Origin: Eledone cirrhosa
Lineage: Eukaryota
Direction of reading: 5' to 3'
Length of the DNA stretch: 64,000 bases
Assembly: GCA_964016885.1 (NCBI GenBank)
Contig: OZ024740.1
Location: 239,072,001 to 239,136,000, forward strand
The notes beneath the pieces were generated by a model. It was given only the letters and a program-made list of their open reading frames with translations. It had not been told where the DNA came from and ran no database searches. Both the position numbers and the translations under genes were made by a program. The stretch's first letter is position 1, and each line of letters begins with the position of its first letter. Shown here one piece after another: positions 10,811 to 58,700 of the stretch.

Positions 10811-10887
<77 letters not shown>

Positions 10888-11228
10888 TCTTGATAAACGC
10901 TCACAAGCGAGAAACAGAAAGTCAGTCGATTACTCTCTGTTGTTTTTTGCCGAGAATAAGTAAGTGACATATTCACTACTTTAAAACTCACAGCGAATGG
11001 TCTTCAAAATGTTTTTAATTACAGTATATTGACAAATATACTATACATACATTCATGTATACATCGTTATTTCAGAGCACCAATACTAATACCATCTGTT
11101 AGACACGCAGTGACTAACAACAGAATGTTTTAATTCTGCGTGTCTGACATATATGCGTAGCTTGTGAATAACAAATTCAAGGGGTGTCGCTGGCCGTGAT
11201 GATCCCTGCCAAACATGTTTTGTAATGT

Positions 11229-12548: not shown

Positions 12549-12995
12549 CTAACAGCGCTGCGATCGAATGTGGCTTTTTAGCCCAGCCAATGATCTAAAA
12601 TGTCTTGCACAGAGTCGGCAACCAAAACATTCACTGGGAATAGTCGGCTGTGGTTGGAGTTCGTGTACTTTTGCATGTCGCTTGAGCCCTCCTGCTGATT
12701 TACATTCTCTACCACATGTTTGGCAAGCATGATGAGTAGCATCTCCAACAGCAGCCTGGTAGTCAACCACTGGTCTTACTTTATGACTGTGAAGATGACT
12801 TTCGAGTCCAGCTTTGCTTAGGCAGAGTCTCGCACATACGCTGCATGTCAGCACCATAGGAGGACCCTCGCCGTCTGGAAGTGCAACAGCAATGCCCTTC
12901 CTCACATCCCGCTTTACTTTCTCGTATGCGATTCGAGATGCTTCAAAGGCAACTTTTCCCGCAAGTCTTTCTCCATTTATTACGATCAGCAGCAA
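12549..12995 (-). CDS. RTE C-terminus with three C2H2-type zinc fingers (frameshifted)
   Basis: CSVC..GLESHLHSH; CQTC..GLKRHAKVH; CRLC..GLKSHIRS. Confidence 0.75.
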   Translation of the reverse strand: MLLIVINGERLAGKVAFEASRIAYEKVKRDVRKGIAVALPDGEGPPMVLTCSVCARLCLSKAGLESHLHSHKVRPVVDYQAAVGDATHHACQTCGRECKSAGGLKRHAKVHELQPQPTIPSECFGCRLCARHFRSLAGLKSHIRSQRC

Positions 12996-13941: not shown

Positions 13942-13954
13942 GTTACCCCCGACA

Positions 13955-16084: not shown

Positions 16085-16125
16085 TGAATTGGAAAAAAAA
16101 AAAAAAAAAAAAAAAAGTAATAATA

Positions 16126-16173
<48 letters not shown>

Positions 16174-17011
16174 GTACACTATTAATAATTATTAATGCAC
16201 TCGTGCAATGCCTGTGCGTGACGAATATTTTTAAAATGAGGAAAGACTGTGCACTGAGCCAATCCCACTCTCTGAGCGACAGTAGCTATAACCCGAAAAG
16301 AAGAAAAGGTCAACATCATCGGTAACTACTGAGCCACAGGTTTTATGTCGGAGTTAACCCAGTTTCCTGAGATGCCTTCTCCTAGAAGAATGCCTTGACA
16401 AGGGCTAGGGGTTCTTCACTAGGGGTTCTTCACTCCCAGTGCGCGATCGGGCATCCAGCCCGATTATTTCTAAAAAAAAACAAAAACACACACACACGCA
16501 CACAACACAACAACATCAACTGCCACCACCACCACTGCCGCCGCCGCCATCACCATCACCAGCGACCGGGCCTTAAGAAAACAACTTTAATAATAATTTT
16601 TCTGCTTTTGGCACGGATCCAGCGACTGGCCCAGCGTATCACTGGTACTCTCTTTTGTTGACTCCGTGGGGATGAAGGGCAGGGTTGACCTCGGCAGGAT
16701 TTGGGCTCAGAGCGTGGAGGGCCGTGACTCTATGCTGTAAAGCAATTATAATAATAGTGGACTGTAGTACGATCGGCTTCAACTATACAAACTCTTGAAA
16801 GTCAACAGTTGACATAATCTTGTAATCTTGTATCAGTAATGACGGTAATATATATATATATAGATATGTGTGTGTGCGTGTAAGTGAGTAGAGTAGCGTG
16901 TGTGTGTTTGTTTGTATGTATGAGTGTTGCTGTGTGCGCGCATATGTATGCGCGTGTGTGTATGTCGTACGTATAAGTGTCAATAAGTGATATATATATA
17001 TATATATATAT

Positions 17012-20914: not shown

Positions 20915-21352
20915 ATATTTACATCTGTATTTTTAACCGCTGATCTATCAATGATAAATATTGATTGCTAAATAAATTAACTATGGAGATATAAAAGATA
21001 CAGAAGCGAAAACCAACCAAACAGTGAGTGTGTTCTGTTATTATTTCTGACAATATTATTACAACAATATGACCCTCCCCAAGTATAACAATATATAAAT
21101 ATATTTCGAAATCACTAGACGTATCTGAGGAACTTGCGAATCCAGAGTCAGGTTCGATCCACAAACAGATCGCACCTCGAACTGTTCGCCGGAGAAACAA
21201 TTGTAATACGTAATAAATTGTGTTTTGATGCATCACTGATTCTTCGTTTTCCATTTTATCATACTCTGCTCCGAAGGATCATGGAGTGCTCAACCGCCAT
21301 ACCGCCTATGGACGCATCCTAGCAACCATACGACATACATATATATATATAT

Positions 21353-21555
21353 ATTTGATATAGAAATGGCTTCTACAGGACTAGAACTGTTTCATTCGGG
21401 AGAAATCATCAGGGGCTTCCTGATGATTTCTCCCGAATAAAACAGTTCTAGTCCCGAAGAAGCCATTTCTATATTAAATAATTATACTCTGCTATGTATT
21501 GAGTACCTTACTTACTGTGGTGACCCCCGATTGAAGCAGGGAAAAACAGATATAG
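21353..21555. mobile_element. fold-back HHR mini-element
   Basis: Arms 21353-21413/21419-21479 both carry CTGATGA; composite HHR with GUA triplet; tail to ~21555. Confidence 0.78.
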
Positions 21556-22657
21556 ATATGTATGTATTGTCTACCAGTAGAATAAGATAAAGATAGTATG
21601 AGAGGTATAGAGATTTGTTAGGAATACGAATTAAGTGACTTGAAATAACGACAATGTGGAAATATTCAGGGACATTTTCTGTACGAAAACCAAAAGATAA
21701 GGTTTAAATGTTTAGTGTAGTGAACCAAGAAGATGACCGACTGCAAACGTAGATTAAACTTAAAAATTTGTTTGAGACATTATCATATTATTGTTTAGCC
21801 TCTGATACTAATCAAATAGAACTATGACCAAAGACGTTCCCACCTTGAACATCCCGTGGCTTTAGATATCCAAGATTAATTTTCCAACGTGTTCTTTTTT
21901 GAAGACAGTATGATGCGAATTGAGGGAGATTTGGTTGCTATCTCTAATAGTTTAAGTGACTACGTAGAGGATCACGCGTTGGCTGTTGTTAATGGCAAAG
22001 TTTTACAATCTTATACATAAATGACAAACCGAACATTTAAGCGAATATTTCCAGGATAGTGTTTTACGGTTCTAAGTATTCAGCTAATCTTTGAACAAAG
22101 GTTTAAAACCTCTTCTAGGGTATTTTGATGTTCTCGAACTTTCCAAAAAGACAGTACAAGTTGTGTCAGCATTTTGCAAAGCTGCAACAGCTGTCAACGG
22201 ATAAGAAGAATATATTTTCATACAAACTCCTTCGCTCATGTATCTACATATGCACATATATCCAACCAATACATCCGCCAAGACAATTTTACTTTCTTGT
22301 TTTTAGAATCCTCGTTTAGTAGATTTTATAAATAGATATGATTGATTGAGAACTTTAAAATTGTATGTCTGGTATAAGTTTATGTGGCATCGCCAAGAAT
22401 AGTATGCAATCAGAAATGGCATTAAGTGTACATTTGAGATGAAGAGTGACATTCGATTGTTTTGAGTAGTTTATATTTGCAATAATCCAATAAGATACGA
22501 TTTATATAGGTTTAATAAAAAACATTAGAACTTGAAAAATATTTGCATTTATTTCTATGAATATAGTTTTGGAACAAAAGATGTGTATAAATATACACAT
22601 GTACACACACATATGTTTATCTATCTAACTGATATATAATATGCATACCCCCCCTCC

Positions 22658-36019: not shown

Positions 36020-37706
36020 TAGGGCTGGATAACCAATCGCGTAGTTAAGCCACTGGGAGTGAAGGACCCCTAGCCCTGGTCATGGCATTCTTCTAGGAGA
36101 AGGCAACTCAGATAACTCCGACATAAAACTTTCTTCTTTTCGGGTTTTAGCAATTGTCGCTCAGAGAGTGGGATTGGCTCAGTGCACAGTCTTTCCTTAC
36201 TTTAAAAAAAATCTTCATGCGCAGGCATTGCACGAAAACATTAATATAGAGGGTCAGACATGCTTTCCAGCATAGTTACGTCCCTTTACGATCTGAGTTC
36301 AAATCCTGCCGAGGTTAACTTTGCCTTTCATCCTTACGAGGTGGTTAAAATAAAGTACCAGTAATGTACTGGGTAATTGCTGACCTTGTGCCAAAAGTAG
36401 AAACAAGTAATTAATAATTATTTATGATGTTATTATTTATAAGATCTCAACTAAATGGCTGGCTGTAGCCATAAAAAGCAACCAATCAATGATGTCCCAA
36501 AACAGCATAATAGTAAATGGCAATGAGGGCTCTGGACCACACCAGGTCAAAGGGTCTGGCCCGGCAGGGGCCCCAGGGCATCACAACCTGAACTCGGCAT
36601 TCATCGTGCCACTGTGATAGAACCATTAAAACTTAGAGCAAACAAAACATTGAATATTGGCTGTTAGAATGTACGGACACTGCTTGACAGGGATTCCTGA
36701 GAACGTCCTGAACGAAGGACCGCTCTTGTTGCGAAGGAGCTTCATCGTTGTGATCTTGACATCGTTGCTTTATCTGAGACGAAGTTAGCTGGAGATGGTC
36801 ATTTTACGGAATATTGTGGATATACATTCTTTTGGAAAGGGAGAGATGAAGGGATTAGAAGAAAGGCTGGAGTAGCATTTGTTGTTAAGACTGCTCTTAT
36901 GGATAAGTTGGAAGAATTCCCAGTGGGGATTAGTGAGCGTCTTATGTCCATGAGAATTCCGTTGGACAATGGAAGGTATGCGACCCTGGTGAGTGTGTAT
37001 GCTCCAACTGAATTATGTTGATGAGGAAAAAATATCTTTCTACCACGCTTTGAAAGGTGTTATAAGAATATCCATCAGGCAGATAAGGTCATCGTGGTGG
37101 GTGACTTTAATGCTAGAGTGGGTAGGGATTTTAACACATGGACTGTAATCGGAAGGTGGGAAATTGTAACGGCAATGGTATGCTTCTGCTGCAGATATGT
37201 GAGGAGCTGCATCTGTGTGTTACCAACACCATGTTTTAGCAAAAGAATAAGTTTAAGACCACATGGATGCATCTTGCATCTAAAGAATGGCATCTTCTGC
37301 ACTACATCCTTGTCAGGGTGTGTGACAGACGGGATGTGCAGTGTATTCGTATTCTTAGTGGGGCTGAGTGTTGGACGGACCACCACCTGGTGCGTGCAAA
37401 AGTGAAATTAACTACAGAGCATAAAATCCGGGCTGCTGGTGTTACCCTGCCCAAAAGACTGAATGCTGCTCGTCTTAGGGATAATAGTGTGAAGAGGACA
37501 TTGCGAGAAGAAATGAATGTTGCAGATATTGGTGAGGATTGGCTGACCCTTAAAAAGTCTGTTTACGATGTAGGCAGGCGTGTTCAGGGATTGGTAAAAA
37601 GAAAATATGAAGACAGTTTTAAAGAAAATGATGAGCATATAGATGAATTGTTGGCTAAGAGGCGTGCTCTGTTACGCTAAGGAACTCAAGGATGTGAAAT
37701 CGCGTG
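36020..37706 (+). mobile_element. decayed RTE LINE 5' half (5'UTR + APE) with a nested SINE A
   Basis: Collinear with 14830-16450(-); several stops and frameshifts. Confidence 0.85.
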
Positions 37707-38563
37707 TCTTCAGGCGGCCAAGGGCTTGACTGGCCTTGCAGGTCCTGGCGTTTATCTCATTGTCGAGGCTTCCATCGCTGCTGATGACACTGCCGAGGTA
37801 CTTGAAGTCGTCCACCGACTTTAGCTGGGTGCCTCCGATGGAGATGGAAGGAGAGTGGGCGACGGAGGCAGGTGCAGGCTGGAACAGGATTTCAGTCTTG
37901 CCAAGGCTAATTGTGAGACCGAAGAGGCAGGAGGCCTCCACGAACTTGTTGACGATGACTTGGAGGTCATACTTCCTGTGGGCCATGACGGCACAGTCGT
38001 CAGCAAAAAAGTGCCTCCAGGACGATCCTCTGCACGGTCCTTGTCTTGACTGTCAGGCGCCGCAGGTCAAACAGAGAGCCGTCCAGTCTGTATCGCAGAT
38101 ACACTCCGTGCTCGAGGTCCCTGACGGCATGTTTGAGCACGCAGGGGAAGAACAGGTTGAAGAGGACGAGAGCCAGCACGCATCCTTGCTTGACGCTGTT
38201 GGTGATTCCGAACGGCTCCGATGCCTCTCCGCCCGAGTGCACCTGCCCGGTCATGTCGTCATGGAATTGCCGTATCAGGTTCACGAACTTTGTCGGGCAT
38301 CCAAACTTCGACAGGATCGACCAGAGAGCCTCCCTGTTGACAGTGTCGAAGGCCTTCGTCAAGTCTATGAAGACGGCAAAGAGGTCAATGTTTTGCTCGA
38401 CACACTTCTCCTGCACCTGGCGTACAGAGCAGATCATGTCGATCGTGCTGCGGTTTGGGCGGAACCCTCACTGGGCCTCAGGCAGGTTGTCCTCCGAGAT
38501 GTTGGCGATGAGGTGGTTGAGCATGACCCGAGCCAGGACCTTCCCAGCGATGGACAGGAGAGA
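37702..38563 (-). pseudogene. GC-rich RTE RT fragment of a different family
   Basis: FIDLTKAFDTVNRE, VKQGCVLA..LF, FKYLGSVIS; markedly more GC-rich than its surroundings. Confidence 0.85.
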
Positions 38564-38576
38564 AATGTATATATAT

Positions 38577-39400
38577 AAAAACCTTATAGCGCTATTTCAT
38601 ACCTGGAGAGTGTAGCTCAGATACACTTCAGAGGTTTATTCTCACTATTCTAAGGGAAATATAGAATGAAGATGGTAAATAAAACAATATACCTGCCAAT
38701 ATCCGCAGCTAAGTCCAACGCTACCGTCATGCTGAGAAGCACATGGTGAAATCACGTTAAACCCAAGGCAAATAGATATCAACAAGGTGGACGTTAACTC
38801 CGCTAGAAATAGGAGCGGTGATTATAGCCGCCGAGCTCAACAAGTTAAGAGGTTTGGAGCCGTTAATTTACAAATAATTGTTTCTACTATTGGCACAAGG
38901 CCAGCAATTAGCCAGTACATTACTGGTACTTTATTTTATCGACCCCCGTAAGGATGAAAGGCAAAGTTAACCTCGGTGGGATTTGAACTCAGAATGGCAA
39001 AGGGACGTAACTATGCTGGAAAGCATGGCGTCCGACCCTCTACCGATACTGCCAATCATCCACCGTTAATTTACAAATAATGAATCAAAACATATCAAAT
39101 ATGTTTAGAACTTTGTGTTTCTCAATAAGGAAGCTCTCGATTACATAGATTGATTTTGAACTACATTCTCCAGGTATGAAATAGCGCTATAAGGTTTCAC
39201 TAATGAATCCATCTGTGTACATATTCTTCTATAGAATATGTATTTGGTATATATACAATATGCCGTGTTTTTTATACGATATATGGCTCTTTCTCTCTCT
39301 CTCTATATATATACATATATCTTTTTCAATAATGTCTATTGAGCGTGCTTATTGACAAACACAAAATTCTAAACATATTTGATGTTTTAATTCAGTATAA
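38577..39400 (-). mobile_element. fold-back HHR element with nested SINE
   Basis: AAACCT-CTGAAGT-GTATCTG/CAGGTAT-GAAA-TAGCGCTA-TA-AGGTTT at 38637-38579; inverted arm 39157-39197; second inverted repeat ~39082-39147/39332-39394. Confidence 0.68.
38875..39063 (-). mobile_element. SINE family A with 18-bp TSD
   Basis: CCGTTAATTTACAAATAA at 38860-38877 and 39063-39080. Confidence 0.9.
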
Positions 39401-40136: not shown

Positions 40137-40141
<5 letters not shown>

Positions 40142-40743
40142 ATACTTTGGGAGGGTCATGTTGCCAATAAGAAACACACGCACCAGTTGCTTTCACTTCA
40201 ATTTATTATAATAAATTTATAATAAATTTATAAATTTATAAATTTCTGGTTGGTTGGTTGGTTCCACAACCAGATAGTTGTTTATATATTGTCATAGTTC
40301 TTTCGTCACACACTCTATTACAATTAAGGACAAAATGAAAACACACACACACATAGAACAAACAACCAACCAGTAACATGTAAATAAACAAATAAATAAA
40401 TGAACATAAACACACACAGACACCCGGATGTGGCGCATGCGCAGACTGAGCACACAACACACACACAGAAACAAAATGGCGTAGGACAGAACAAAGGAGA
40501 GGCACAAAAACAAAGAAAGGAATCGCCAGTCACTGAAGAGGTCACAGAGTGTGTGACGAAAGAACTATGAAAATATATAAACAACCAGAAATTTATAAAT
40601 TTATAAATTTATTATAATAAATTGAAATGAAAGCGTCTGGTGCGTGTGTTTCTTATTGGCAACATGACCCTCCCAAAGTATAACAAAATCGATTTCAACA
40701 CACGATTTCAGATAAAGAATCTTGCTAAACAAATTCAGAAACG

Positions 40744-40744
<1 letters not shown>
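40137..40744 (+). mobile_element. fold-back HHR mini-element (multi-copy family)
   Basis: GTCA-CTGAAGA-G-GTCACA/TGTGAC-GAAAG-AA-CTA-TGA at 40529-40570; inverted arms; tail 40687-40744. Confidence 0.8.
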
Positions 40745-40777
<33 letters not shown>

Positions 40778-40934
40778 ATATATGTATATATGTATATATA
40801 TATATATATATAAATATAGACATAGAATATTCGAAAATATTCTGTATGTTTATAATAAACATTTTGAAGACCTAATCGCTATAGAATAGAATACGTCACG
40901 TATTACAATTAGATTCTCGATAAAAGCAAGGGAA

Positions 40935-40977
40935 GTAATCTACGCGTTTCATTCTCGTTAGAAATCATCAGGACTAC
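40935..40977 (-). ncRNA. type I HHR, first array unit (repeats every 310 bp)
   Basis: Reverse complement of the motif at 45550-45592. Confidence 0.85.
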
Positions 40978-43900
40978 ATATCCAGTGCTTTTATCGAGAA
41001 TGACACAGCTAGAGACTTATAGAATACTTAGCTGTGTACAGGAACTGGTTTGAAAGAGCGGTTGCCGGTCCGGCAGAAATTAGAAATTGGAATAAATGCT
41101 CTGAAATAGCGATATATATGTGAATATAGACATAGAATATTCGAAAATATTCTGTATGTTTATAATAAACATTTTGAAGACCTAATCGCTATAGAATAGA
41201 ATACGTCACGTATTACAATTAGATTCTCGATAAAAGCAAGGGAAGTAATCTACGCGTTTCATTCTCGTTAGAAATCATCAGGACTACATATCCAGTGCTT
41301 TTATCGAGAATGACACAGCTAGAGACTTATAGAATACTTAGCTGTGTACAGGAACTGGTTTGAAAGAGCGGTTGCCGGTCCGGCAGAAATTAGAAATTGG
41401 AATAAATGCTCTGAAATAGCGATATATATGTGAATATAGACATAGAATATTCGAAAATATTCTGTATGTTTATAATAAACATTTTGAAGACCTAATCGCT
41501 ATAGAATAGAATACGTCACGTATTACAATTAGATTCTCGATAAAAGCAAGGGAAGTAATCTACGCGTTTCATTCTCGTTAGAAATCATCAGGACTACATA
41601 TCCAGTGCTTTTATCGAGAATGACACAGCTAGAGACTTATAGAATACTTAGCTGTGTACAGGAACTGGTTTGAAAGAGCGGTTGCCGGTCCGGCAGAAAT
41701 TAGAAATTGGAATAAATGCTCTGAAATAGCGATATATATGTGAATATAGACATAGAATATTCGAAAATATTCTGTATGTTTATAATAAACATTTTGAAGA
41801 CCTAATCGCTATAGAATAGAATACGTCACGTATTACAATTAGATTCTCGATAAAAGCAAGGGAAGTAATCTACGCGTTTCATTCTCGTTAGAAATCATCA
41901 GGACTACATATCCAGTGCTTTTATCGAGAATGACACAGCTAGAGACTTATAGAATACTTAGCTGTGTACAGGAACTGGTTTGAAAGAGCGGTTGCCGGTC
42001 CGGCAGAAATTAGAAATTGGAATAAATGCTCTGAAATAGCGATATATATGTGAATATAGACATAGAATATTCGAAAATATTCTGTATGTTTATAATAAAC
42101 ATTTTGAAGACCTAATCGCTATAGAATAGAATACGTCACGTATTACAATTAGATTCTCGATAAAAGCAAGGGAAGTAATCTACGCGTTTCATTCTCGTTA
42201 GAAATCATCAGGACTACATATCCAGTGCTTTTATCGAGAATGACACAGCTAGAGACTTATAGAATACTTAGCTGTGTACAGGAACTGGTTTGAAAGAGCG
42301 GTTGCCGGTCCGGCAGAAATTAGAAATTGGAATAAATGCTCTGAAATAGCGATATATATGTGAATATAGACATAGAATATTCGAAAATATTCTGTATGTT
42401 TATAATAAACATTTTGAAGACCTAATCGCTATAGAATAGAATACGTCACGTATTACAATTAGATTCTCGATAAAGCAAGGGAAGTAATCTACGCGTTTCA
42501 TTCTCGTTAGAAATCATCAGGACTACATATCCAGTGCTTTTATCGAGAATGACACAGCTAGAGACTTATAGAATACTTAGCTGTGTACAGGAACTGGTTT
42601 GAAAGAGCGGTTGCCGGTCCGGCAGGAATTAGAAATTGGAATAAATGTTCTGAAATAGCGATATATATGTGAATATAGACATAGAATATTCGAAAATATT
42701 CTGTATGTTTATAATAAACATTTTGAAGACCTAATCGCTATAGAATAGAATACGTCACGTATTACAATTAGATTCTCGATAAAAGCAAGGGAAGTAATCT
42801 ACGCGTTTCATTCTCGTTAGAAATCATCAGGACTACATATCCAGTGCTTTTATCGAGAATGACACAGCTAGAGACTTATAGAATACTTAGCTGTGTACAG
42901 GAACTGGTTTGAAAGAGCGGTTGCCGGTCCGGCAGAAATTAGAAATTGGAATAAATGCTCTGAAATAGCGATATATATGTGAATATAGACATAGAATATT
43001 CGAAAATATTCTGTATGTTTATAATAAACATTTTGAAGACCTAATCGCTATAGAATAGAATACGTCACGTATTACAATTAGATTCTCGATAAAAGCAAGG
43101 GAAGTAATCTACGCGTTTCATTCTCGTTAGAAATCATCAGGACTACATATCCAGTGCTTTTATCGAGAATGACACAGCTAGAGACTTATAGAATACTTAG
43201 CTGTGTACAGGAACTGGTTTGAAAGAGCGGTTGCCGGTCCGGCAGAAATTAGAAATTGGAATAAATGCTCTGAAATAGCGATATATATGTGAATATAGAC
43301 ATAGAATATTCGAAAATATTCTGTATGTTTATAATAAACATTTTGAAGACCTAATCGCTATAGAATAGAATACGTCACGTATTACAATTAGATTCTCGAT
43401 AAAAGCAAGGGAAGTAATCTACGCGTTTCATTCTCGTTAGAAATCATCAGGACTACATATCCAGTGCTTTTATCGAGAATGACACAGCTAGAGACTTATA
43501 GAATACTTAGCTGTGTACAGGAACTGGTTTGAAAGAGCGGTTGCCGGTCCGGCAGAAATTAGAAATTGGAATAAATGCTCTGAAATAGCGATATATATGT
43601 GAATATAGACATAGAATATTCGAAAATATTCTGTATGTTTATAATAAACATTTTGAAGACCTAATCGCTATAGAATAGAATACGTCACGTATTACAATTA
43701 GATTCTCGATAAAAGCAAGGGAAGTAATCTACGCGTTTCATTCTCGTTAGAAATCATCAGGACTACATATCCAGTGCTTTTATCGAGAATGACACAGCTA
43801 GAGACTTATAGAATACTTAGCTGTGTACAGGAACTGGTTTGAAAGAGCGGTTGCCGGTCCGGCAGAAATTAGAAATTGGAATAAATGCTCTGAAATAGCG

Positions 43901-45525
43901 ATATATATGTGAATATAGACATAGAATATTCGAAAATATTCTGTATGTTTATAATAAACATTTTGAAGACCTAATCGCTATAGAATAGAATACGTCACGT
44001 ATTACAATTAGATTCTCGATAAAAGCAAGGGAAGTAATCTACGCGTTTCATTCTCGTTAGAAATCATCAGGACTACATATCCAGTGCTTTTATCGAGAAT
44101 GACACAGCTAGAGACTTATAGAATACTTAGCTGTGTACAGGAACTGGTTTGAAAGAGCGGTTGCCGGTCCGGCAGAAATTAGAAATTGGAATAAATGCTC
44201 TGAAATAGCGATATATATGTGAATATAGACATAGAATATTCGAAAATATTCTGTATGTTTATAATAAACATTTTGAAGACCTAATCGCTATAGAATAGAA
44301 TACGTCACGTATTACAATTAGATTCTCGATAAAAGCAAGGGAAGTAATCTACGCGTTTCATTCTCGTTAGAAATCATCAGGACTACATATCCAGTGCTTT
44401 TATCGAGAATGACACAGCTAGAGACTTATAGAATACTTAGCTGTGTACAGGAACTGGTTTGAAAGAGCGGTTGCCGGTCCGGCAGAAATTAGAAATTGGA
44501 ATAAATGCTCTGAAATAGCGATATATATGTGAATATAGACATAGAATATTCGAAAATATTCTGTATGTTTATAATAAACATTTTGAAGACCTAATCGCTA
44601 TAGAATAGAATACGTCACGTATTACAATTAGATTCTCGATAAAAGCAAGGGAAGTAATCTACGCGTTTCATTCTCGTTAGAAATCATCAGGACTACATAT
44701 CCAGTGCTTTTATCGAGAATGACACAGCTAGAGACTTATAGAATACTTAGCTGTGTACAGGAACTGGTTTGAAAGAGCGGTTGCCGGTCCGGCAGAAATT
44801 AGAAATTGGAATAAATGCTCTGAAATAGCGATATATATGTGAATATAGACATAGAATATTCGAAAATATTCTGTATGTTTATAATAAACATTTTGAAGAC
44901 CTAATCGCTATAGAATAGAATACGTCACGTATTACAATTAGATTCTCGATAAAAGCAAGGGAAGTAATCTACGCGTTTCATTCTCGTTAGAAATCATCAG
45001 GACTACATATCCAGTGCTTTTATCGAGAATGACACAGCTAGAGACTTATAGAATACTTAGCTGTGTACAGGAACTGGTTTGAAAGAGCGGTTGCCGGTCC
45101 GGCAGAAATTAGAAATTGGAATAAATGCTCTGAAATAGCGATATATATGTGAATATAGACATAGAATATTCGAAAATATTCTGTATGTTTATAATAAACA
45201 TTTTGAAGACCTAATCGCTATAGAATAGAATACGTCACGTATTACAATTAGATTCTCGATAAAAGCAAGGGAAGTAATCTACGCGTTTCATTCTCGTTAG
45301 AAATCATCAGGACTACATATCCGTATTCTATTCTATAGCGATTAGGTCTTCAAAATGTTTATTATAAACATACAGAATATTTTCGAATATTCTATGTCTA
45401 TATTCACATATATATCGCTATTTCAGAGCATTTATTCCAATTTCTAATTTCTGCCGGACCGGCAACCGCTCTTTCAAACCAGTTCCTGTACACAGCTAAG
45501 TATTCTATAAGTCTCTAGCTGTGTC

Positions 45526-45614
45526 ATTCTCGATAAAAGCACTGGATATGTAGTCCTGATGATTTCTAACGAGAATGAAACGCGTAGATTACTTCCCTTG
45601 CTTTTATCGAGAAT
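45526..45614 (+). ncRNA. type I HHR with extended stem I
   Basis: GTAGTC-CTGATGA-T-TTCT-AACG-AGAA-T-GAAAC-GC-GTA-GATTAC plus a 16-bp distal helix ATTCTCGATAAAAGCA/TGCTTTTATCGAGAAT. Confidence 0.87.
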
Positions 45615-45745
45615 CTAATTGTAATACGTGACGTATTCTATTCTATAGCGATTAGGTCTTCAAAATGTTTATTATAAACATACAGAATATTTTCGAATAT
45701 TCTATGTCTATATTCACATATATATCGCTATTTCAGAGCATTTAT

Positions 45746-45797
<52 letters not shown>

Positions 45798-45798
45798 G

Positions 45799-45852
<54 letters not shown>

Positions 45853-47444: not shown

Positions 47445-47514
<70 letters not shown>

Positions 47515-48494
47515 GATAAATCTACCAAGAGTTTACGGTAGTGTCCAATCCGTATGAAGAACTCAATGTATTCCGGATATCATGGAAAGAAGAGATGTAA
47601 TGAAAAATCACTTTCGGTGAAAGATAAACGGAATACAGAGTCAAGATAAAATATTAAACAAATAATGAATAAAACAATGAAACAGTTCCTTATATTAAAC
47701 AAAAAAGTTCATTATTTAACGATCGTTTCTAGGATATATATGTGTTAGAATTGGCATGCATATTCAACAGATCTATGTACAAAATTATACAAAATTATAC
47801 AAACTATCAAGATTAAATATACATACCAAACACACATATATGCCGTCTTCAGAAATAATGAAATATATTTATTGATAATAACAACAATTCAAAATTTCAG
47901 GTCCGTTTGGGAACGGAGTTCAAAATTGACCAATGAAAATACAAAAAGTTTTATGCAGTTTGGTGTGTGTATATACATGTAACTAACCCCGTACACATAT
48001 TTATACAAAGATATATGCTCAACATGCATACGCATGCCAAAAAGATGTATGCAAATACAAAAAAATTTAAGGCTAATGTCTCTGTAAGTTTATAATCCAC
48101 AGATAAAATGCGTATAGACACATAAATATGAAATAAGTGTATACACATATTCTCATACTCACACATATCCATACACTCACACACACGCGCGCGTATATGC
48201 ATAAACATACACATAATTACGAACATACATACACACACACACCCCCACACACATATATATGTGGATATAATATTATCATAAGCACATGGATATTAATTCA
48301 CTCACATAAACACTGCCACACACATTTAGATCAAGATACAGAAATTAGGTGGGAGGGGGGGAGAGGTCAGTATTCAACTGTTTGGGCAGACTGCTTATTT
48401 ATAGATGTATCTATAAACTTCGAAATAAAAAGAAAAGAAAAAGAAAAAAGAAAAAAGAAATATATCAAGAAAATATATATATATATATATACAC

Positions 48495-48572
<78 letters not shown>

Positions 48573-48615
48573 CTACACATACAACACACACACACACACA
48601 TATATAAACATATAC

Positions 48616-48646
<31 letters not shown>

Positions 48647-49055
48647 TACATATATATATATACATATATATACACACATATATACACATATATACACACA
48701 CATATATAGACACGCATATATATACACATACACGCACATATACATACACATACATACTTATATACATACAGACATACACATACATACATATATATACACA
48801 CATATACATACAGACATACATACATACATACACACATACACACATACATACACACACATACATACTCATACATAGACATAGAAATATATTCACCCACACA
48901 TACGTACTTATATATACGCATATATATAAATACTTACGCATCCATATATCGGTATATACATACAAAACACCACTACACTCTCACACAACTCAGACATACA
49001 AAGAAAAAGGTATATACATATACACATATACACATACAACTAGAGATACATATAC

Positions 49056-49086
<31 letters not shown>

Positions 49087-49705
49087 CACATACATATATA
49101 TAAATACATACGCATCCATATATGCGTATATACATACAAACACCACTACACTCTCACACAACTCAGACATACAAAGAAAAAGGTATATACATATACATAT
49201 ATACACACATTAATAGAGATACATATACACATATATATATATATATATACACATACATTTATATATATACCCACACACACATACAACCATAAACACACAT
49301 ACAAACACATACATACACACATATATATACATATATATACACACACACAAAAACACACATACACATATATATTTTTACACATACATATACATATATATAC
49401 ATATACACACCTTCACATATATATATATACACATAAGTTATATTATAATAATAAATAATATATATATATACACATACGAATACATATATATACACACATA
49501 GATATACACATTCATATATACACACACACACACACACTCACATATATATGTGCGCACACGTACATATATACACATACACACATATAGACATAAACATATA
49601 CATGTGCATACATGTACATACACACATATACACACATAGATACGAAGATAGACATATATATAGAGAGACATACATATACATACACATATATACATACACA
49701 TACAT

Positions 49706-49788
<83 letters not shown>

Positions 49789-50581
49789 TACATGCCCACA
49801 CATATATACACATATACACACATATATATATATACATACACATATATATACACATGTATATATACACACATATATATACATACATATATATATACACACA
49901 ATCATACATTCTTATTTGCATGCGCATATATGTATTTTTATACTCAGATATAAACACCCAAACATATATACACCTACCTACATATATATTCATACATACA
50001 CGCTTACAAACACAAATGATAATAGTATGGGGGAAAAGGGGGGGGGGTGGTGGAGAAGGGGATTATAGTAAATATATGTTTCAAGAAACATAGAATATTA
50101 ATCTGTATTTGGATCTCAATATATGTTTTTACATAGTTTCAGTGTTAGGAAATGCAAGAAATAAGGCAAAATTATGCATTTCAAAATAAGTATACCATTA
50201 ATTATATGTTAACTAAACTAAAGAAAGTTAACATATTGATTTCTAAGGTGTAAATTAGTTAGGTTTATAATATTTGAAGCAGAATTTTGAAGTTAAATAG
50301 TAGTAGAGTATTAATTATAGTATAACTAAATTAAAGTTATTAACGTTATGGTATCAATATTAGGAAATGAATTTAGTAATAGGGAAAAAACAAATAAAGT
50401 ATTACATCGGTAGTAGAATATAAATTATAGGTTAACTAAATTAAAAATTATATATTAATTTCTATAGTATATGTTAATTAGGTATATAATAAATAAAACA
50501 GATATTGTATTTTATCAATAGCAGAATATAATTATATGCAAATAGAAATCAAAATTAATACATATACACATACATATACAT

Positions 50582-50634
<53 letters not shown>

Positions 50635-51136
50635 AACATACATACACATACATATACATACATACATATACATATTTTTTCAAAAATTGCAAAGAATATA
50701 TTAACTAGGTATACATCCAAAACACATCCCATTCTATGATTACATGACACTCTGCAATCCGTCTGTATTAGGATACTAATTTTAAGCCAATTAAATTAAA
50801 TTTTTAGGTTGACTAAATTTAAAACCAAATTATAAATATATTTCTAAAATGTATATTAATTAGGTCTATAATACTAAAAATTATTTCTCTGTCATTGGAT
50901 ACACGATATTTTGTTATATTTTATCTGTAAAGGAATTTTAATAAAGGGTTAAATAAATTAAAATTAATCTATAAATTAAATTACTAAGTATATATTAGTA
51001 ATATTTAAAGGTTTTTCACAATTTATGATTACACAATATTTTATATTCTCATCTGTAGTAGAATTTTAATTAAATTAAATTTATAGGTTAACTAACATTT
51101 AAATTAAATTATATATTAATTTCTAAAATAATGTTA

Positions 51137-52510
51137 TTAATTAGGTTTATAATATTTAAATGTTTTTTTTAGTTTATGATTACACGATATAATTAATTCC
51201 TGTCGTTTATTTAATAGGATATCCTTAGATTTCATTATTTCAAATAGTTCTTGGGAACATAATCTACATTCATTTCTATTATTTTGATAAGGGGTGGCTC
51301 TTTTGAGCACACTCCAGGTCAAATCATATTCTATATTCTTATTTTTATAACTATTGATTTTTTCTGCTAGAGATGTTGTATTAGCCAGTGCGGCATTTTT
51401 AAAACTATGCTTGTGGGTATTAAACCTTGTCTTAAAATTGTTAGAAGTAGCTCCTATATATGAGCAAATAGAATCTTTAGTTTTAACATTACATTTATAG
51501 ACTATGTTGTTAACAAGACAATTCCCTTTTAATGGGCAGTTTGCTTTGTTTCTACAGTTACAACCTTTCGTTAATTCTGTATTTGAGGAGATATTATGGT
51601 TAATTTGATGTATTGGTGGTATACCTATGGTTTTCTTACATTTATATGCATTATAGGCACTTATATTTTGTTTTATGTTATTTGTTGTTGAGTATGAGAA
51701 TTTAACTGTAGACCTATTTAAGATTTGATGGTATTTGTGGTTTGGCGGGAAGTTTTTCTCTAGGATATAAAAAAATTTTTTAGCAATATTATCCTTAATT
51801 TGTAAATTAAATGGAGCATTATACCAAGTAACCCGTCTATTACGGTTTCTATGTTGTTTATTATTTTTATTATTTTTATAGGTTGTATCGTGATGTTTAC
51901 TAGGAGGATTAATGTTAATGATCTCACCACAACCATTTTTAGTTATATTTGTAGATTTAGGTGTTTTATCTTTTTTATTAGGAGTTTTATTATTAATATT
52001 TATTAGAGTTGTATGATGAGTAGTTTTTTGAGAGTTACTATATTTTATATTAGAAGATTTGGTATTTTGGGGTATAGTGTGGGTGGCATTTAGGTGTGTA
52101 CTTTTCATTTGGTGTTTGTTGGTAATATTAGGTTGTATGCTTTTAGTATTTTTAGTAGAAGGTATATATTCTAATCTATTTTTGTGGCCACTTCTATCTA
52201 GAGCTTCGTTATAGAAGGTCGCATTTTTATCAAATACATCTTGGTTAGAAGAAAGGTTAGAAATTCTAAGTGATATATTATATGCAAGGTTTTTAATGAT
52301 AGATTTAGGGTGATTAGATTGTGAGTGTATGTAATGTAAGTTTTGGTTTGGTTTATGGTAAGGTTGGTAGATACCCGTAGCTAAATCTAAAGTTATATCT
52401 AGGAAATTTACTACTTTACTTGTTTTTTCAAAAGTAATATGAAGATTATAATAGTCTTTAAGGAAAGTTCTAATATGTTTTTTGTTTTTTTCTATTTCTG
52501 AAAGGCTAAG
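51137..52510 (-). pseudogene. inverted partial copy of the PLE ORF (RT end, linker, GIY-YIG)
   Basis: ORF 51137-52108 is identical to the last 323 aa of ORF 52482-54842. Confidence 0.9.
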
Positions 52511-54842
52511 ATGGAGGGCCTACCACTTCGATAAAAAATCTAAACAAGCAGATCGGAAATATATGTATGATTTCAATACTTACAAGAATCCACCACACAA
52601 CTTTTTACTTGAAGACTTCGAGAAAGACCTTTTTAATTTAATTAAACACCTCAAATTTAAAAAGTATAAATCCGTCTTTCAAAAGGACCTTGATTCTACC
52701 CTATTGGACCTAAAAAAGTCTAAAAAAATCCATGTCCACTCGGACAAAACTGGTAACTTGTATCACATGGATATTGAACATTATAATGAGTTCATATATA
52801 AAGAACTCAGAAAAAATTATAAAAAATCTAATAATGCGTCACTCACCAACATCAACAACAAAACACACAACATAGTAAAAAAACTAAACATTGAAGATAG
52901 AACTGAACCCTTGGCATTGAAAAGACCACACTTCAACCTGAAGGATCATAAATCAAACTTTAACTCAAATCCTTCTATAAGACTTATATGTCCCTCCAAA
53001 TCAGATATTGGAATAATTAGCAAACAAATTTTGGATAGAGTCATCCCACAAATAAGAAAACACGTTATTTTACCACTCTGGGAAAACACCTCCCAGGTAA
53101 TTAACTGGTTTAAAAATATTAGATGTAAATCTTCTGCTTCATTTCTACAATTTGATATAGATAATTACTATTCTTCTATATCACCTATACTCCTGAACAA
53201 AGCATTGATATTTGCTAAAAATAGATCTAACTTAACTTTGGATGACATTAATATTATTACACATGCTAGACTAACACTTATTGAATTTCAGAATGAATAC
53301 TGGACCAGAAACACATATAGTAATCTATTTGATATTACTATGGGTTCAAGCGATTCCGCCCAAATTACTGATCTTGTGGGCCTCTTTCTCCTTTTCAACA
53401 TAAATGCCTCCTTTCCCCACCTTAAAGGTGGTTTATATCGTGATGACTGTCTTCTTCTTTCTAACAACCTTAGCCTTTCAGAAATAGAAAAAAACAAAAA
53501 ACATATTAGAACTTTCCTTAAAGACTATTATAATCTTCATATTACTTTTGAAAAAACAAGTAAAGTAGTAAATTTCCTAGATATAACTTTAGATTTAGCT
53601 ACGGGTATCTACCAACCTTACCATAAACCAAACCAAAACTTACATTACATACACTCACAATCTAATCACCCTAAATCTATCATTAAAAACCTTGCATATA
53701 ATATATCACTTAGAATTTCTAACCTTTCTTCTAACCAAGATGTATTTGATAAAAATGCGACCTTCTATAACGAAGCTCTAGATAGAAGTGGCCACAAAAA
53801 TAGATTAGAATATATACCTTCTACTAAAAATACTAAAAGCATACAACCTAATATTACCAACAAACACCAAATGAAAAGTACACACCTAAATGCCACCCAC
53901 ACTATACCCCAAAATACCAAATCTTCTAATATAAAATATAGTAACTCTCAAAAAACTACTCATCATACAACTCTAATAAATATTAATAATAAAACTCCTA
54001 ATAAAAAAGATAAAACACCTAAATCTACAAATATAACTAAAAATGGTTGTGGTGAGATCATTAACATTAATCCTCCTAGTAAACATCACGATACAACCTA
54101 TAAAAATAATAAAAATAATAAACAACATAGAAACCGTAATAGACGGGTTACTTGGTATAATGCTCCATTTAATTTACAAATTAAGGATAATATTGCTAAA
54201 AAATTTTTTTATATCCTAGAGAAAAACTTCCCGCCAAACCACAAATACCATCAAATCTTAAATAGGTCTACAGTTAAATTCTCATACTCAACAACAAATA
54301 ACATAAAACAAAATATAAGTGCCTATAATGCATATAAATGTAAGAAAACCATAGGTATACCACCAATACATCAAATTAACCATAATATCTCCTCAAATAC
54401 AGAATTAACGAAAGGTTGTAACTGTAGAAACAAAGCAAACTGCCCATTAAAAGGGAATTGTCTTGTTAACAACATAGTCTATAAATGTAATGTTAAAACT
54501 AAAGATTCTATTTGCTCATATATAGGAGCTACTTCTAACAATTTTAAGACAAGGTTTAATACCCACAAGCATAGTTTTAAAAATGCCGCACTGGCTAATA
54601 CAACATCTCTAGCAGAAAAAATCAATAGTTATAAAAATAAGAATATAGAATATGATTTGACCTGGAGTGTGCTCAAAAGAGCCACCCCTTATCAAAATAA
54701 TAGAAATGAATGTAGATTATGTTCCCAAGAACTATTTGAAATAATGAAATCTAAGGATATCCTATTAAATAAACGACAGGAATTAATTATATCGTGTAAT
54801 CATAAACTAAAAAAAACATTTAAATATTATAAACCTAATTAA
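52482..54842 (+). CDS. PLE reverse transcriptase + GIY-YIG endonuclease, 5'-truncated
   Basis: FDIDNYYSSI, TMGSSDSAQITDLVG, LYRDD, FLDI, SNHP; CNC..CPL, IVY..YIG..FKTRF..H, CRLC..E, LN.R.E..CNH. The first ~9 codons come from the inverted arm. Confidence 0.93.
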   Translation: MFFSISERLRWRAYHFDKKSKQADRKYMYDFNTYKNPPHNFLLEDFEKDLFNLIKHLKFKKYKSVFQKDLDSTLLDLKKSKKIHVHSDKTGNLYHMDIEHYNEFIYKELRKNYKKSNNASLTNINNKTHNIVKKLNIEDRTEPLALKRPHFNLKDHKSNFNSNPSIRLICPSKSDIGIISKQILDRVIPQIRKHVILPLWENTSQVINWFKNIRCKSSASFLQFDIDNYYSSISPILLNKALIFAKNRSNLTLDDINIITHARLTLIEFQNEYWTRNTYSNLFDITMGSSDSAQITDLVGLFLLFNINASFPHLKGGLYRDDCLLLSNNLSLSEIEKNKKHIRTFLKDYYNLHITFEKTSKVVNFLDITLDLATGIYQPYHKPNQNLHYIHSQSNHPKSIIKNLAYNISLRISNLSSNQDVFDKNATFYNEALDRSGHKNRLEYIPSTKNTKSIQPNITNKHQMKSTHLNATHTIPQNTKSSNIKYSNSQKTTHHTTLININNKTPNKKDKTPKSTNITKNGCGEIININPPSKHHDTTYKNNKNNKQHRNRNRRVTWYNAPFNLQIKDNIAKKFFYILEKNFPPNHKYHQILNRSTVKFSYSTTNNIKQNISAYNAYKCKKTIGIPPIHQINHNISSNTELTKGCNCRNKANCPLKGNCLVNNIVYKCNVKTKDSICSYIGATSNNFKTRFNTHKHSFKNAALANTTSLAEKINSYKNKNIEYDLTWSVLKRATPYQNNRNECRLCSQELFEIMKSKDILLNKRQELIISCNHKLKKTFKYYKPN

Positions 54843-55344
54843 TAACATTATTTTAGAAATTAATATATAATTTAATTTAAATGTTAGTTAACCTATAAAT
54901 TTAATTTAATTAAAATTCTACTACAGATGAGAATATAAAATATTGTGTAATCATAAATTGTGAAAAACCTTTAAATATTACTAATATATACTTAGTAATT
55001 TAATTTATAGATTAATTTTAATTTATTTAACCCTTTATTAAAATTCCTTTACAGATAAAATATAACAAAATATCGTGTATCCAATGACAGAGAAATAATT
55101 TTTAGTATTATAGACCTAATTAATATACATTTTAGAAATATATTTATAATTTGGTTTTAAATTTAGTCAACCTAAAAATTTAATTTAATTGGCTTAAAAT
55201 TAGTATCCTAATACAGACGGATTGCAGAGTGTCATGTAATCATAGAATGGGATGTGTTTTGGATGTATACCTAGTTAATATATTCTTTGGAATTTTTGAA
55301 AAAATATGTATATGTATGTATGTATATGTATGTGTATGTATGTT

Positions 55345-55393
<49 letters not shown>

Positions 55394-56181
55394 ATGTATA
55401 TGTATGTGTATATGTATTAATTTTGATTTCTATTTGCATATAATTATATTCTGCTATTGATAAAATACAATATCTGTTTTATTTATTATATACCTAATTA
55501 ACATATACTATAGAAATTAATATATAATTTTTAATTTAGTTAACCTATAATTTATATTCTACTACCGATGTAATACTTTATTTGTTTTTTCCCTATTACT
55601 AAATTCATTTCCTAATATTGATACCATAACGTTAATAACTTTAATTTAGTTATACTATAATTAATACTCTACTACTATTTAACTTCAAAATTCTGCTTCA
55701 AATATTATAAACCTAACTAATTTACACCTTAGAAATCAATATGTTAACTTTCTTTAGTTTAGTTAACATATAATTAATGGTATACTTATTTTGAAATGCA
55801 TAATTTTGCCTTATTTCTTGCATTTCCTAACACTGAAACTATGTAAAAACATATATTGAGATCCAAATACAGATTAATATTCTATGTTTCTTGAAACATA
55901 TATTTACTATAATCCCCTTCTCCACCCCCCCCTTTTCCCCCATACTATTATCATTTGTGTTTGTAAGCGTGTATGTATGAATATATATGTAGGTAGGTGT
56001 ATATATGTTTGGGTGTTTATATCTGAGTATAAAAATACATATATGCGCATGCAAATAAGAATGTATGATTGTGTGTATATATATATGTATGTATATATAT
56101 GTGTGTATATATACATGTGTATATATATGTGTATGTATATATATATATGTGTGTATATGTGTATATATGTGTGGGCATGTA

Positions 56182-56242
<61 letters not shown>

Positions 56243-56863
56243 ATGTATGTGTATGTATATATGTGTATGTATATGTATGTCTCTCTATATATATGTCTAT
56301 CTTCGTATCTATGTGTGTATATGTGTGTATGTACATGTATGCACATGTATATGTTTATGTCTATATGTGTGTATGTGTATATATGTACGTGTGCGCACAT
56401 ATATATGTGAGTGTGTGTGTGTGTGTGTATATATGAATGTGTATATCTATGTGTGTATATATATGTATTCGTATGTGTATATATATATATTATTTATTAT
56501 TATAATATAACTTATGTGTATATATATATATGTGAAGGTGTGTATATGTATATATATGTATATGTATGTGTAAAAATATATATGTGTATGTGTGTTTTTG
56601 TGTGTGTGTATATATATGTATATATATGTGTGTATGTATGTGTTTGTATGTGTGTTTATGGTTGTATGTGTGTGTGGGTATATATATAAATGTATGTGTA
56701 TATATATATATATATATATGTGTATATGTATCTCTATTAATGTGTGTATATATGTATATGTATATACCTTTTTCTTTGTATGTCTGAGTTGTGTGAGAGT
56801 GTAGTGGTGTTTGTATGTATATACGCATATATGGATGCGTATGTATTTATATATATGTATGTG

Positions 56864-56894
<31 letters not shown>

Positions 56895-57305
56895 GTATAT
56901 GTATCTCTATTTGTATGTGTATATGTGTATATGTATATACCTTTTTCTTTGTATGTCTGAGTTGTGTGAGAGTGTAGTGGTGTTTTGTATGTATATACCG
57001 ATATATGGATGCGTAAGTATTTATATATATGCGTATATATAAGTACGTATGTGTGGGTGAATATATTTCTATGTCTATGTATGAGTATGTATGTGTGTGT
57101 ATGTATGTGTGTATGTGTGTATGTATGTATGTATGTCTGTATGTATATGTGTGTATATATATGTATGTATGTGTATGTCTGTATGTATATAAGTATGTAT
57201 GTGTATGTATATGTGCGTGTATGTGTATATATATGCGTGTCTATATATGTGTGTGTGTATATATGTGTATATATGTGTGTATATATATGTATATATATAT
57301 ATGTA

Positions 57306-57336
<31 letters not shown>

Positions 57337-57379
57337 GTATATGTTTATATATGTGTGTGTGTGTGTGTTGTATGTGTAG

Positions 57380-57427
<48 letters not shown>

Positions 57428-58062
57428 GTGTATATATATATATATATATTTTCTTGATATATTTCTTTTTTCTTTTTTCTTTTTCTTTTCTTTTTATTTC
57501 GAAGTTTATAGATACATCTATAAATAAGCAGTCTGCCCAAACAGTTGAATACTGACCTCTCCCCCCCCCCTCCCACCTAATTTCTGTATCTTGATCTAAA
57601 TGTGTGTGGCAGTGTTTATGTGAGTGAATTAATATCCATGTGCTTATGATAATATTATATCCACATATATATGTGTGTGGGGGTGTGTGTGTGTATGTAT
57701 GTTCGTAATTATGTGTATGTTTATGCATATACGCGCGCGTGTGTGTGAGTGTATGGATATGTGTGAGTATGAGAATATGTGTATACAGTTATTTCATATT
57801 TATGTGTCTATACGCATTTTATCTGTGGATTATAAACTTACAGAGACATTAGCCTTAAATTTTTTTGTATTTGCATACATCTTTTTGGCATGCGTATGCA
57901 TGTTGAGCATATATCTTTGTATAAATATGTGTACGGGGTTAGTTACATGTATATACACACACCAAACTGCATAAAACTTTTTGTATTTTCATTGGTCAAT
58001 TTTGAACTCCGTTCCCAAACGGACCTGAAATTTTGAATTGTTGTTATTATCAATAAATATAT

Positions 58063-58217
58063 TTCATTATTTCTGAAGACGGCATATATGTGTGTTTGGT
58101 ATGTATATTTAATCTTGATAGTTTGTATAATTTTGTATAATTTTGTACATAGATCTGTTGAATATGCATGCCAATTCTAACACATATATATCCTAGAAAC
58201 GATCGTTAAATAATGAA
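58063..58217 (+). ncRNA. type I HHR with a 116-nt stem II region (mirror copy 47708-47862 on -)
   Basis: TTCATTATTT-CTGAAGA-[58080-58195]-GAAAC-GATC-GTT-AAATAATGAA; perfect 10-bp stem I. Confidence 0.75.
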
Positions 58218-58271
58218 CTTTTTTTGTTTAATATAAGGAACTGTTTCATTGTTTTATTCATTATTTGTTTA

Positions 58272-58700
<429 letters not shown>

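Follow-up and report, generated by a model that had tools for sequence, protein, structure and literature searches.

How did two opposed runs of near-identical repeats come to be written into a microsatellite of the Eledone cirrhosa genome? Within the window (the whole 64 kb stretch of DNA that was analysed) the locus consists of two back-to-back runs of 310-base non-coding units set in an AT microsatellite. The long arm (40813..45322, ribozyme sense on the minus strand) contains 14.55 head-to-tail 310-nt units, the short arm (45322..45751, plus strand, 430 nt) contains 1.39 units, and TRF returns the array with period 310, 14.6 copies and 99% matches. Counting from 40813, 15 anchors are spaced 310 bp apart with one spacing of 309, 13 of the 14 full units are identical, unit 6 carries three differences and the partial unit ends at 45322, in agreement with the 14 near-identical units plus a partial one described in the first-pass annotation. 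The arms meet in an inversion junction with one shared base at 45322 (unit positions 268 and 46, numbered from the predicted hammerhead cut), next to the strand switch proposed near 45323. The outer end of the long arm lies at unit position 128, the 'short' start site, and that of the short arm at 165, the 'tail' start site; in unit coordinates the right end runs 37 nt past the left, where about 40 nt had been estimated, and this one-sided extension forms a PLE-type tail at 45715..45751 (plus strand, unit positions 129-165). Both ends lie in (AT)n, as had been noted, the unstranded target tracts being (AT)n at 40744..40812 on the left and (AT)n/(AC)n at 45752..45852 on the right. At 310 bp the unit falls within the 150-450 bp of head-to-tail non-coding retrozyme repeats and its GC content of 34.5% lies below their bound of 50%. 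The longest stop-free stretch on either strand is 59 aa, which bears out the reported lack of an open-reading frame and leaves the unit without the RT and GIY-YIG of an autonomous PLE.

Judged from its sequence, each unit carries a complete type I hammerhead, predicted on the plus strand of the short arm at 45526..45614. Stem I comprises a 6-bp part (GUAGUC 45550-45555, GAUUAC 45587-45592) and a 16-bp extension (45526-45541, 45599-45614), followed by the core CUGAUGA (45556-45562), a 4-bp stem II (UUCU/AGAA) with a U.U closing pair, and GAAACGCGUA (45577-45586), with self-cleavage predicted after GUA at 45586; stem III is the palindrome ACGCGU. The Rfam check suggested for this motif gave no hammerhead match at gathering score or E<=10, only AT-repeat miRNA noise, so the assignment is based on inspection, which recovers the stems first described, and on covariation in relatives rather than on an Rfam model. 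Sister families show compensatory changes in the hammerhead: in one of them 55 of the 56 cores carry U3-A8, with covariation also in stems II and III. Within the present family the 11 invariant core bases show zero locus-fixed changes, while N7 and loop II vary. The exact 31-nt hammerhead core occurs 4,226 times genome-wide (reversed control, 0). Folding the unit as a circle, as had been proposed, gave -67.8 kcal/mol, a z of -3.9 relative to 150 shuffled sequences. A further hairpin, AGAAUAUU-UUCG-AAUAUUCU (45684..45703, plus strand), lies upstream of both start sites, is retained with compensatory changes in sister families and probably belongs to the site that the RT recognises.

The repeat is dispersed, multi-locus and mobile. 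Pattern searches counted 17,832 units genome-wide, confirming that this is not a single-locus satellite, and we estimate ~2,100 young insertions. The loci fetched for closer study were picked by end or core patterns, all from the initial 277 Mb of a single contig; among them, 98 of 111 separate insertions have two head-to-head arms with the RNA 3' ends outward, one further two-arm locus being classed as 'other' solely because the fetched sequence stopped inside it. The least biased set, selected by the hammerhead only, was two-armed in 9 of 10 cases. Wherever both ends of a two-arm insertion were in view (87/87), one lay at 125-139 and the other at 157-172, and exact tail/(AT)n junctions number 1,006 genome-wide against 0 in the control. 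(TA)n flanks were partly built into the selection patterns, yet are found at hammerhead-selected loci too. A possible 9-13 bp target-site duplication was seen at one locus (L032), inside a compound microsatellite, duplications being unreadable in pure (AT)n. Dispersed arrays with permuted ends had been anticipated; the dispersal is borne out, but the outer ends fall at two fixed sites and it is the inner junction that is random, with ends scattered over the unit and just 2 of 188 falling 3 nt or less from the predicted cut. An assembly fold-back or expansion, or an ordinary single-locus satellite, is extremely improbable as an explanation: near-perfect repeats and palindromes pose problems for assembly and the exact unit numbers are those of the assembly, but the units occupy thousands of dispersed sites, the two arms differ in register and stop at separate fixed sites, and like anatomy is present in a sister family with 5-6% divergence between copies and in protein-coding PLEs.

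The insertions show the hallmarks of PLEs, namely an inverted 5'-truncated partner, a 30-40 bp tail at one end and a (TA)n target. According to the accessible text of Craig et al. 2021 (PMC8557442), EN+ Hydra-clade PLEs combine these same features with a type I hammerhead and tandems, and the Poseidon PAc protein cleaves both strands and extends them, with the tail defined by two internal sites at which reverse transcription starts (Frangieh et al. 2024, PMC11167929). The two-arm structure with its short and tail ends therefore matches both PLE anatomy and the two-site priming of PAc. Compared with the EN+ PLEs described there, the present family has no open-reading frame, a 310-nt repeat unit and arms that are both long clonal multimers: the longest reach 17.7 units, and both arms hold at least 2 units in 54 of 87 insertions. 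A fold-back origin, with one arm copied from its partner, was discarded: neither arm is consistently the longer (the tail arm is in 51/87), and both ends are precise. As inner ends show no accumulation at the cut, the template would have had no free 5' end there, and together with locus-fixed variants in both arms this favours two target-primed rolling-circle cDNAs from one monomeric circle. The genome-wide anatomy supports the initial reading of a PLE-mobilised retrozyme copied from a circular template, with the correction that the single reverse transcription first envisaged is replaced by two, from both target strands, joined 3' end to 3' end.

Variants differ between loci and are clonal within them. 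The 99 loci carry 35 haplotypes (L058 and L074 left out), and opposite arms are concordant in 61 of 64 loci, where shuffling gave a mean of 8.7 and a maximum of 18. Twenty-four of the 35 haplotypes are confined to a single locus yet fixed there, for example 88A>T in 24/24 units. At the 92 loci with at least 4 units, 276G occurs in all units of 7, in none of 84 and in a mixture at 1, against 32.6 mixed loci expected if units were independent. Private substitutions amount to 113 in 932 units (289 kb), ~0.12 per unit; these counts exclude L136 and L138, whose arm boundaries were over-extended through self-complementary stems (three true private changes were re-added), and three adjacent calls at L073. 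Tandem repeats expand by unequal crossover or gene conversion, and a short PLE-type two-arm insertion could have been expanded and homogenised later in this way, by the local amplification that Li, Clavereau and Pollet (2026) discuss; the arms of an older sister family are indeed shorter, in loci that were cut to about 3.3 kb. We regard such DNA-level expansion as very unlikely, since the near-identity of the units leaves it little time, the opposite arms share a private haplotype and it gives no reason for the strand-specific A>G excess described below.

A stronger challenge to the single circle, though still an unlikely one in our assessment, is PLE twin priming on a long uncleaved linear array transcript, in which the cDNAs start in one unit and copy the upstream units once. 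In vitro, unprocessed RNA suffices for insertion by PAc, hammerhead cleavage being dispensable (PMC11167929), which counts against the circle model, and uncleaved RNA also predicts no pile-up of inner ends at the cut. At L064, L074 and L099 both arms carry a non-fixed variant in the matching unit, counting inwards from each outer end, as a linear template would give and a pure monomer circle does not predict; the 276G mosaic at L058 likewise counts against a single circle. A linear transcript would, however, need a separate route to the long clonal array of each single-locus haplotype, and the all-or-none distribution of 276G speaks against it. Source arrays carry on average ~0.12 private substitutions per unit, yet the mirrored pairs that involve a single base number just 2, while 60 other testable calls were unmirrored (the L058 mosaic not counted).

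The locus-fixed changes are skewed towards A>G in RNA stems. A>G makes up 10 of 31 locus-fixed changes, as against 10 of 113 unit-private ones, and the ratio of A>G to C>T is 10:2 among fixed but 10:20 among private changes (p=0.006), C>T being the commonest private change. These fixed A>G changes are possibly ADAR edits. Selection for pairing or a mutational hot spot is a serious competitor on this sub-question, to which we give somewhat less than an even chance: of the 10 distinct sites with a fixed A>G, 9 belong to A-U pairs, whose change to G.U is tolerated and preserves the stem, and the contrast between A>G and T>C at distinct fixed sites reaches only p=0.049. Against this competitor, C>T in G-C pairs would be equally tolerated, yet it shows the opposite ratio. 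In addition, 276A>G (UAG context) occurs on at least 5 different linked-marker combinations, several with markers 8-19 nt away, and A>G at 259 and at 20 on three combinations each. G makes up 4.7% at position 276 genome-wide, and a spanning tree assigns 13-14 of 41 changes to A>G, a conservative count since it polarises position 276 as one A>G and four G>A.

Which enzyme would have done the copying? Intact Hydra-type PLEs are present in the genome, and one of them has 25 of 28 nt of the hammerhead core and stem II in common with the unit, the remainder of its pLTR aligning to the unit no better than shuffles do. The intact PLE family within the window showed no match to the unit, and at none of 30 sister-motif loci did a PLE open-reading frame run into the motif, two short fragments in the flanks being all that was seen; another set of 30 loci was scanned for long frames and hammerheads. 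No autonomous PLE with the start-site module of the unit was found among the window PLE, the 30 sister-motif loci and the hammerhead-sharing pLTR, and Pfam assigned no family to the 795-aa PLE frame. The mobilising enzyme was probably a Hydra-clade PLE acting as a dimer.

Taken together, we consider it likely that a PLE RT/GIY-YIG enzyme wrote the young array, with priming from both strands of the target and rolling-circle copying of a single 310-nt circular RNA. Arrays would be transcribed, adjacent hammerheads would associate by way of their palindromic stem III and cleave at GUA, and a host ligase would close the 310-nt monomer into a circle. A borrowed PLE protein, probably a Hydra-clade dimer, would then nick both (AT)n strands; the first 3' end would start at unit position ~130-139, where the RNA AUAUAUAU can pair with the target, and the second ~35 nt further 3', at 165-172. 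Both cDNAs would circle the template, for a median of 3-4 turns and up to 17.7, before their 3' ends were joined at random positions through short overlaps or filler. Sequencing runs containing the unit include none recorded as RNA, the four that were examined consist of contigs of unknown kind, and the 310-nt back-joint in those contigs is not used as evidence because tandem DNA gives it too. The fuller proposal, that every insertion represents many turns of copying, on two strands and by a Hydra-type PLE dimer, of one individual circle, that ~2,000 circles are preserved with their A-to-I edits and that ADAR editing is a source of heritable variants, is more tentative and falls a little short of an even chance.

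Non-LTR retrozymes are a known metazoan class, in which cleavage and circles have been demonstrated and rolling-circle reverse transcription by PLEs has been proposed (Cervera and de la Pena 2020, PMC7229834). The family resembles those in the accessible text of that paper in its 150-450 bp non-coding tandem units with one type I hammerhead each, GC below 50% and thousands of copies, while its weak palindromic stem III recalls axolotl HHR_Amex1 and the U.U pair closing stem II recalls HHR_Amex2. It adds an insertion footprint at about 100 loci, with cleavage and circle predicted only, and the terms 'inverted', 'tail' and 'microsatellite' are absent from the main text there. Li, Clavereau and Pollet (bioRxiv 2026.07.22.740005), in the accessible text, argue from co-occurrence and pLTR homology, mostly in vertebrates, that retrozymes are non-autonomous PLE derivatives, and discuss their local DNA amplification. 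Their retrozymes and the present family share a dependence on PLEs and are alike in unit size and repeat number, but in the present family the pLTR homology extends over just 28 nt, in the hammerhead of one PLE; in the same text 8 of 9 Xenopus retrozyme dimers were uncleaved in vitro, which counts against the cleavage step, and two-arm anatomy, tail and editing go unmentioned. Chlamys elements such as MRC1, in the accessible text of PMC8557442, are likewise non-autonomous PLE dependants with multicopy head-to-tail insertions, mostly without hammerheads and with 3' sequence in common with autonomous partners. We found no such insertion signature of a retrozyme family in the literature searched, in which subscription journals are thinly covered, and it is apparently undescribed there.

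The re-entry of animal retrozymes and the rolling-circle copying of circular RNA by PLEs have been proposed since 2014-2020, without demonstration in the literature examined. This family provides a precise footprint of such a process, with two start sites, both strands, many turns and one template. Its 310-nt substrate and its target are both defined, and the same genome has intact candidate enzymes, making the model testable in a single in vitro assay. If the A>G skew does reflect editing, the family would represent a path by which RNA edits become heritable in DNA.

The array at window positions 40813-45751 is built of 310-bp units in two oppositely oriented arms. The long arm (40813-45322) comprises 14.55 units whose ribozyme lies on the minus strand, and the short arm (45322-45751) has 1.39 units carrying it on the plus strand. 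As the first-pass annotation had described, the units are near-identical (13 of the 14 full units have the same sequence), the strand switches, (AT)n adjoins both outer ends and no open reading frame is present, the longest stop-free stretch in the unit being at most 59 aa. The circular fold it had proposed gives -67.8 kcal/mol (z -3.9). The type I hammerhead it placed in every unit was recovered with all core bases. Stem I has 6 bp plus 16 bp, and stem II has 4 bp with U.U as its closing pair; the palindromic stem III (ACGCGU) is unable to close within a single copy, and its pairing as a homodimer is predicted at -7.5 kcal/mol. The suggested Rfam search gave no score for this hammerhead. Unit positions are numbered from the predicted cut, after 45586. 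The array was inserted into the (AT)n at the right end of a separate inverted hammerhead-like remnant of Penelope-like element (PLE) type (40138-40743, between two (AT)n tracts), and at 10886-11093 a decayed sequence related to the 310-mer, with a 69% match over 165 nt, ends near the tail position.

The 310-bp family is young and dispersed. Its 31-nt core has 4,226 exact copies in the 3.0-Gb genome, and the genome-wide search, using a pattern admitting variants, returned 17,832 units (about 0.18% of the genome); as sampled insertions average 8.4 units, this corresponds to roughly 2,100 insertions. In its size and its microsatellites the genome probably resembles those of octopuses. The sample comprised 111 insertions (932 units), selected by core or end patterns and all lying on contig C1 within its first 277 Mb; substitutions private to one unit were scarce (113 in 289 kb). 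Separately, 90-100% of the unit's sampled words were present in six sequencing runs (X1-X6; four organism labels, DNA or RNA unrecorded).

The predicted ribozyme is under constraint; no locus-fixed variant (one carried by all units of an insertion) falls on the 11 invariant core bases, N7 and loop II are variable, and 287T>A converts the U.U pair to A-U. Older sister families with units of about 320 nt (loci L163-L192; L193-L222; L033 4354-4732; L126 2819-3314) are 65-72% identical to the unit and, like it, have the hairpin, the two end sites and a layout in two arms; their tail motif has 4,369 exact matches genome-wide. U3-A8 replaces C3-G8 in 55 of 56 cores of one sister family, a natural covariation already known in PLE hammerheads (PMC4209133), and stem II was seen as GUAC/GUAC, GCAC/GUGC, ACGC/GCGU and AUAC/GUAU. 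Sister-family hammerheads alternate between C3-G8 and U3-A8. Several different repeats with hammerheads occur in the window alone, further type I motifs of other families lying at 21340-21560, 26621 (-), 62058 (+) and 63100 (-).

Two head-to-head arms, RNA 3' ends outward, were found in 98 of 111 insertions, with one arm visible in 13 (including three not judgeable). By selection set, two arms were present in the window insertion and 9/10 others picked by hammerhead, in 56/60 picked by tail and in 12/20 picked by short end without an exact tail partner; 20 others, having been selected as pairs, say nothing about this frequency. The first-pass annotation had expected permuted array ends, but outer ends lie in two fixed zones, 125-139 (short end) and 157-172 (tail end), combined in each of the 87 two-arm loci for which both ends were retrieved, and only the inner ends spread across the unit (chi-square p=0.11; 2/188 at most 3 nt from the cut). 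Exact tail/(AT)n junctions number 1,006 genome-wide. Median arm lengths are 3.0 and 4.2 units (maximum 17.7), with at least two units in each arm in 54/87. Among 59 inspected arm junctions, classed without a null comparison, the arms overlap by 0-5 nt at 38 and are 1-21 nt apart at 15, and six junctions show longer apparent overlaps in self-complementary sequence. This anatomy matches PLE features recorded in PMC8557442 (a truncated partner copy in inverted orientation, a tail of 30-40 bp on one side, (TA)n targets) and the behaviour of PAc, a Poseidon-type PLE protein, which cuts and extends both target strands from two internal RNA start sites that define the tail (PMC11167929), so insertion was very likely the work of a PLE RT/GIY-YIG, with two cDNAs per insertion. 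The earlier proposal of one reverse transcription by such an enzyme thus keeps its PLE, on the tail, inverted arm and (TA)n, and loses its single cDNA to the two arms.

Locus-specific variants are fixed through all units of both arms. There are 35 haplotypes among 99 loci, arm haplotypes agree in 61 of 64 loci (shuffle mean 8.7), and the 276G variant (840 units genome-wide) occupies all units in seven loci, none in 84 and a mixture in one, against about 33 mixed loci expected if units were independent. We infer one monomer template per insertion, which fits rolling-circle copying, in which the RT would read a single ligated monomer circle many times; such copying predicts repeated reading of one monomer without a free end at the cut. 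A linear uncleaved RNA as template stays the main rival because PAc in vitro needs no hammerhead cleavage (PMC11167929). A pure monomer circle also leaves unexplained three loci (L064, L074, L099) whose non-fixed variants recur in the two arms at an equal number of units from the outer end (reading inward, each arm of L074 has two units of one haplotype followed by another haplotype), and the 276G mosaic, L058; under circular copying these would call for templates that are now and then multimeric, for a joint switch of template or for conversion at a later time.

In ribozyme sense, A>G accounts for 10/31 distinct locus-fixed substitutions vs 10/113 private ones (p=0.002; against T>C, p=0.049; tree-based counts, p=0.001-0.013), and nine of the ten fixed sites are in A-U pairs. 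The change 276A>G, in stem I and a UAG context, appears repeatedly, on at least five combinations of markers, and those at positions 20 and 259 each recur on three. UAG is given as the ADAR-preferred triplet in PMC11334849, and coleoids as having the highest known ADAR editing in bioRxiv 2025.12.15.694494. Tolerance of G.U pairs does not fully account for this bias, since fixed changes show no like enrichment of C>T (A>G:C>T 10:2 fixed vs 10:20 private, p=0.006); we lean towards editing of the RNA template by ADAR as a somewhat probable source.

Two PLEs are candidate enzyme sources. The first, two-armed between (TA)n tracts at window 47512-58280 with a 134-nt one-sided extension, has an N-truncated 795-aa frame (52455-54842) and belongs to a young family (57 scored copies at 98-100% identity) in which many copies have an 830-aa open frame and some form 6.65-kb tandems; it has no sequence in common with the unit and no clear hammerhead by pattern search. 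The second family (6,044 pattern matches) includes an intact 758-aa frame on the minus strand at L253 3965-6238 (G000:C1:14205000-14211700), with a hammerhead pLTR directly upstream, a period of 5,966 bp and a tail of about 67 nt. This hammerhead equals the unit's at 25/28 bases, stem II included, closer than those of the unit's own sister families; outside it the pLTR gave no alignment to the unit. The RW[R], DKT and CxCX5C motifs are present in both proteins, which by motif fit the Hydra clade, (TA)n-targeting according to PMC8557442. Another locus, L256 1426-4332 (-), holds a 969-aa RT plus GIY-YIG frame whose cysteine linker differs, flanked by two hammerhead ends of the second family and likely a nested member of another PLE clade. 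Broken endonuclease plus RT frames at window 12943-16285 (-) and 36701-38615 resemble RTE-type LINEs.

Publications already cover non-LTR retrozymes, the circles they form and a PLE-driven cycle proposed for them (PMC7229834; bioRxiv 2026.07.22.740005; PMC4209133). The 310-bp repeat, known here from sequence, matches them on every testable sequence feature and on that footing is a non-LTR retrozyme, also in its apparent mode of working. Inverted arms, the tail and ADAR go unmentioned in the main text of PMC7229834 and the accessible main text of bioRxiv 2026.07.22.740005, and our literature searches, supplements of both retrozyme papers aside, found no description of the two-arm/tail anatomy. 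What the family would add is a direct footprint of insertion, evidence for a single template and a possible record of editing.
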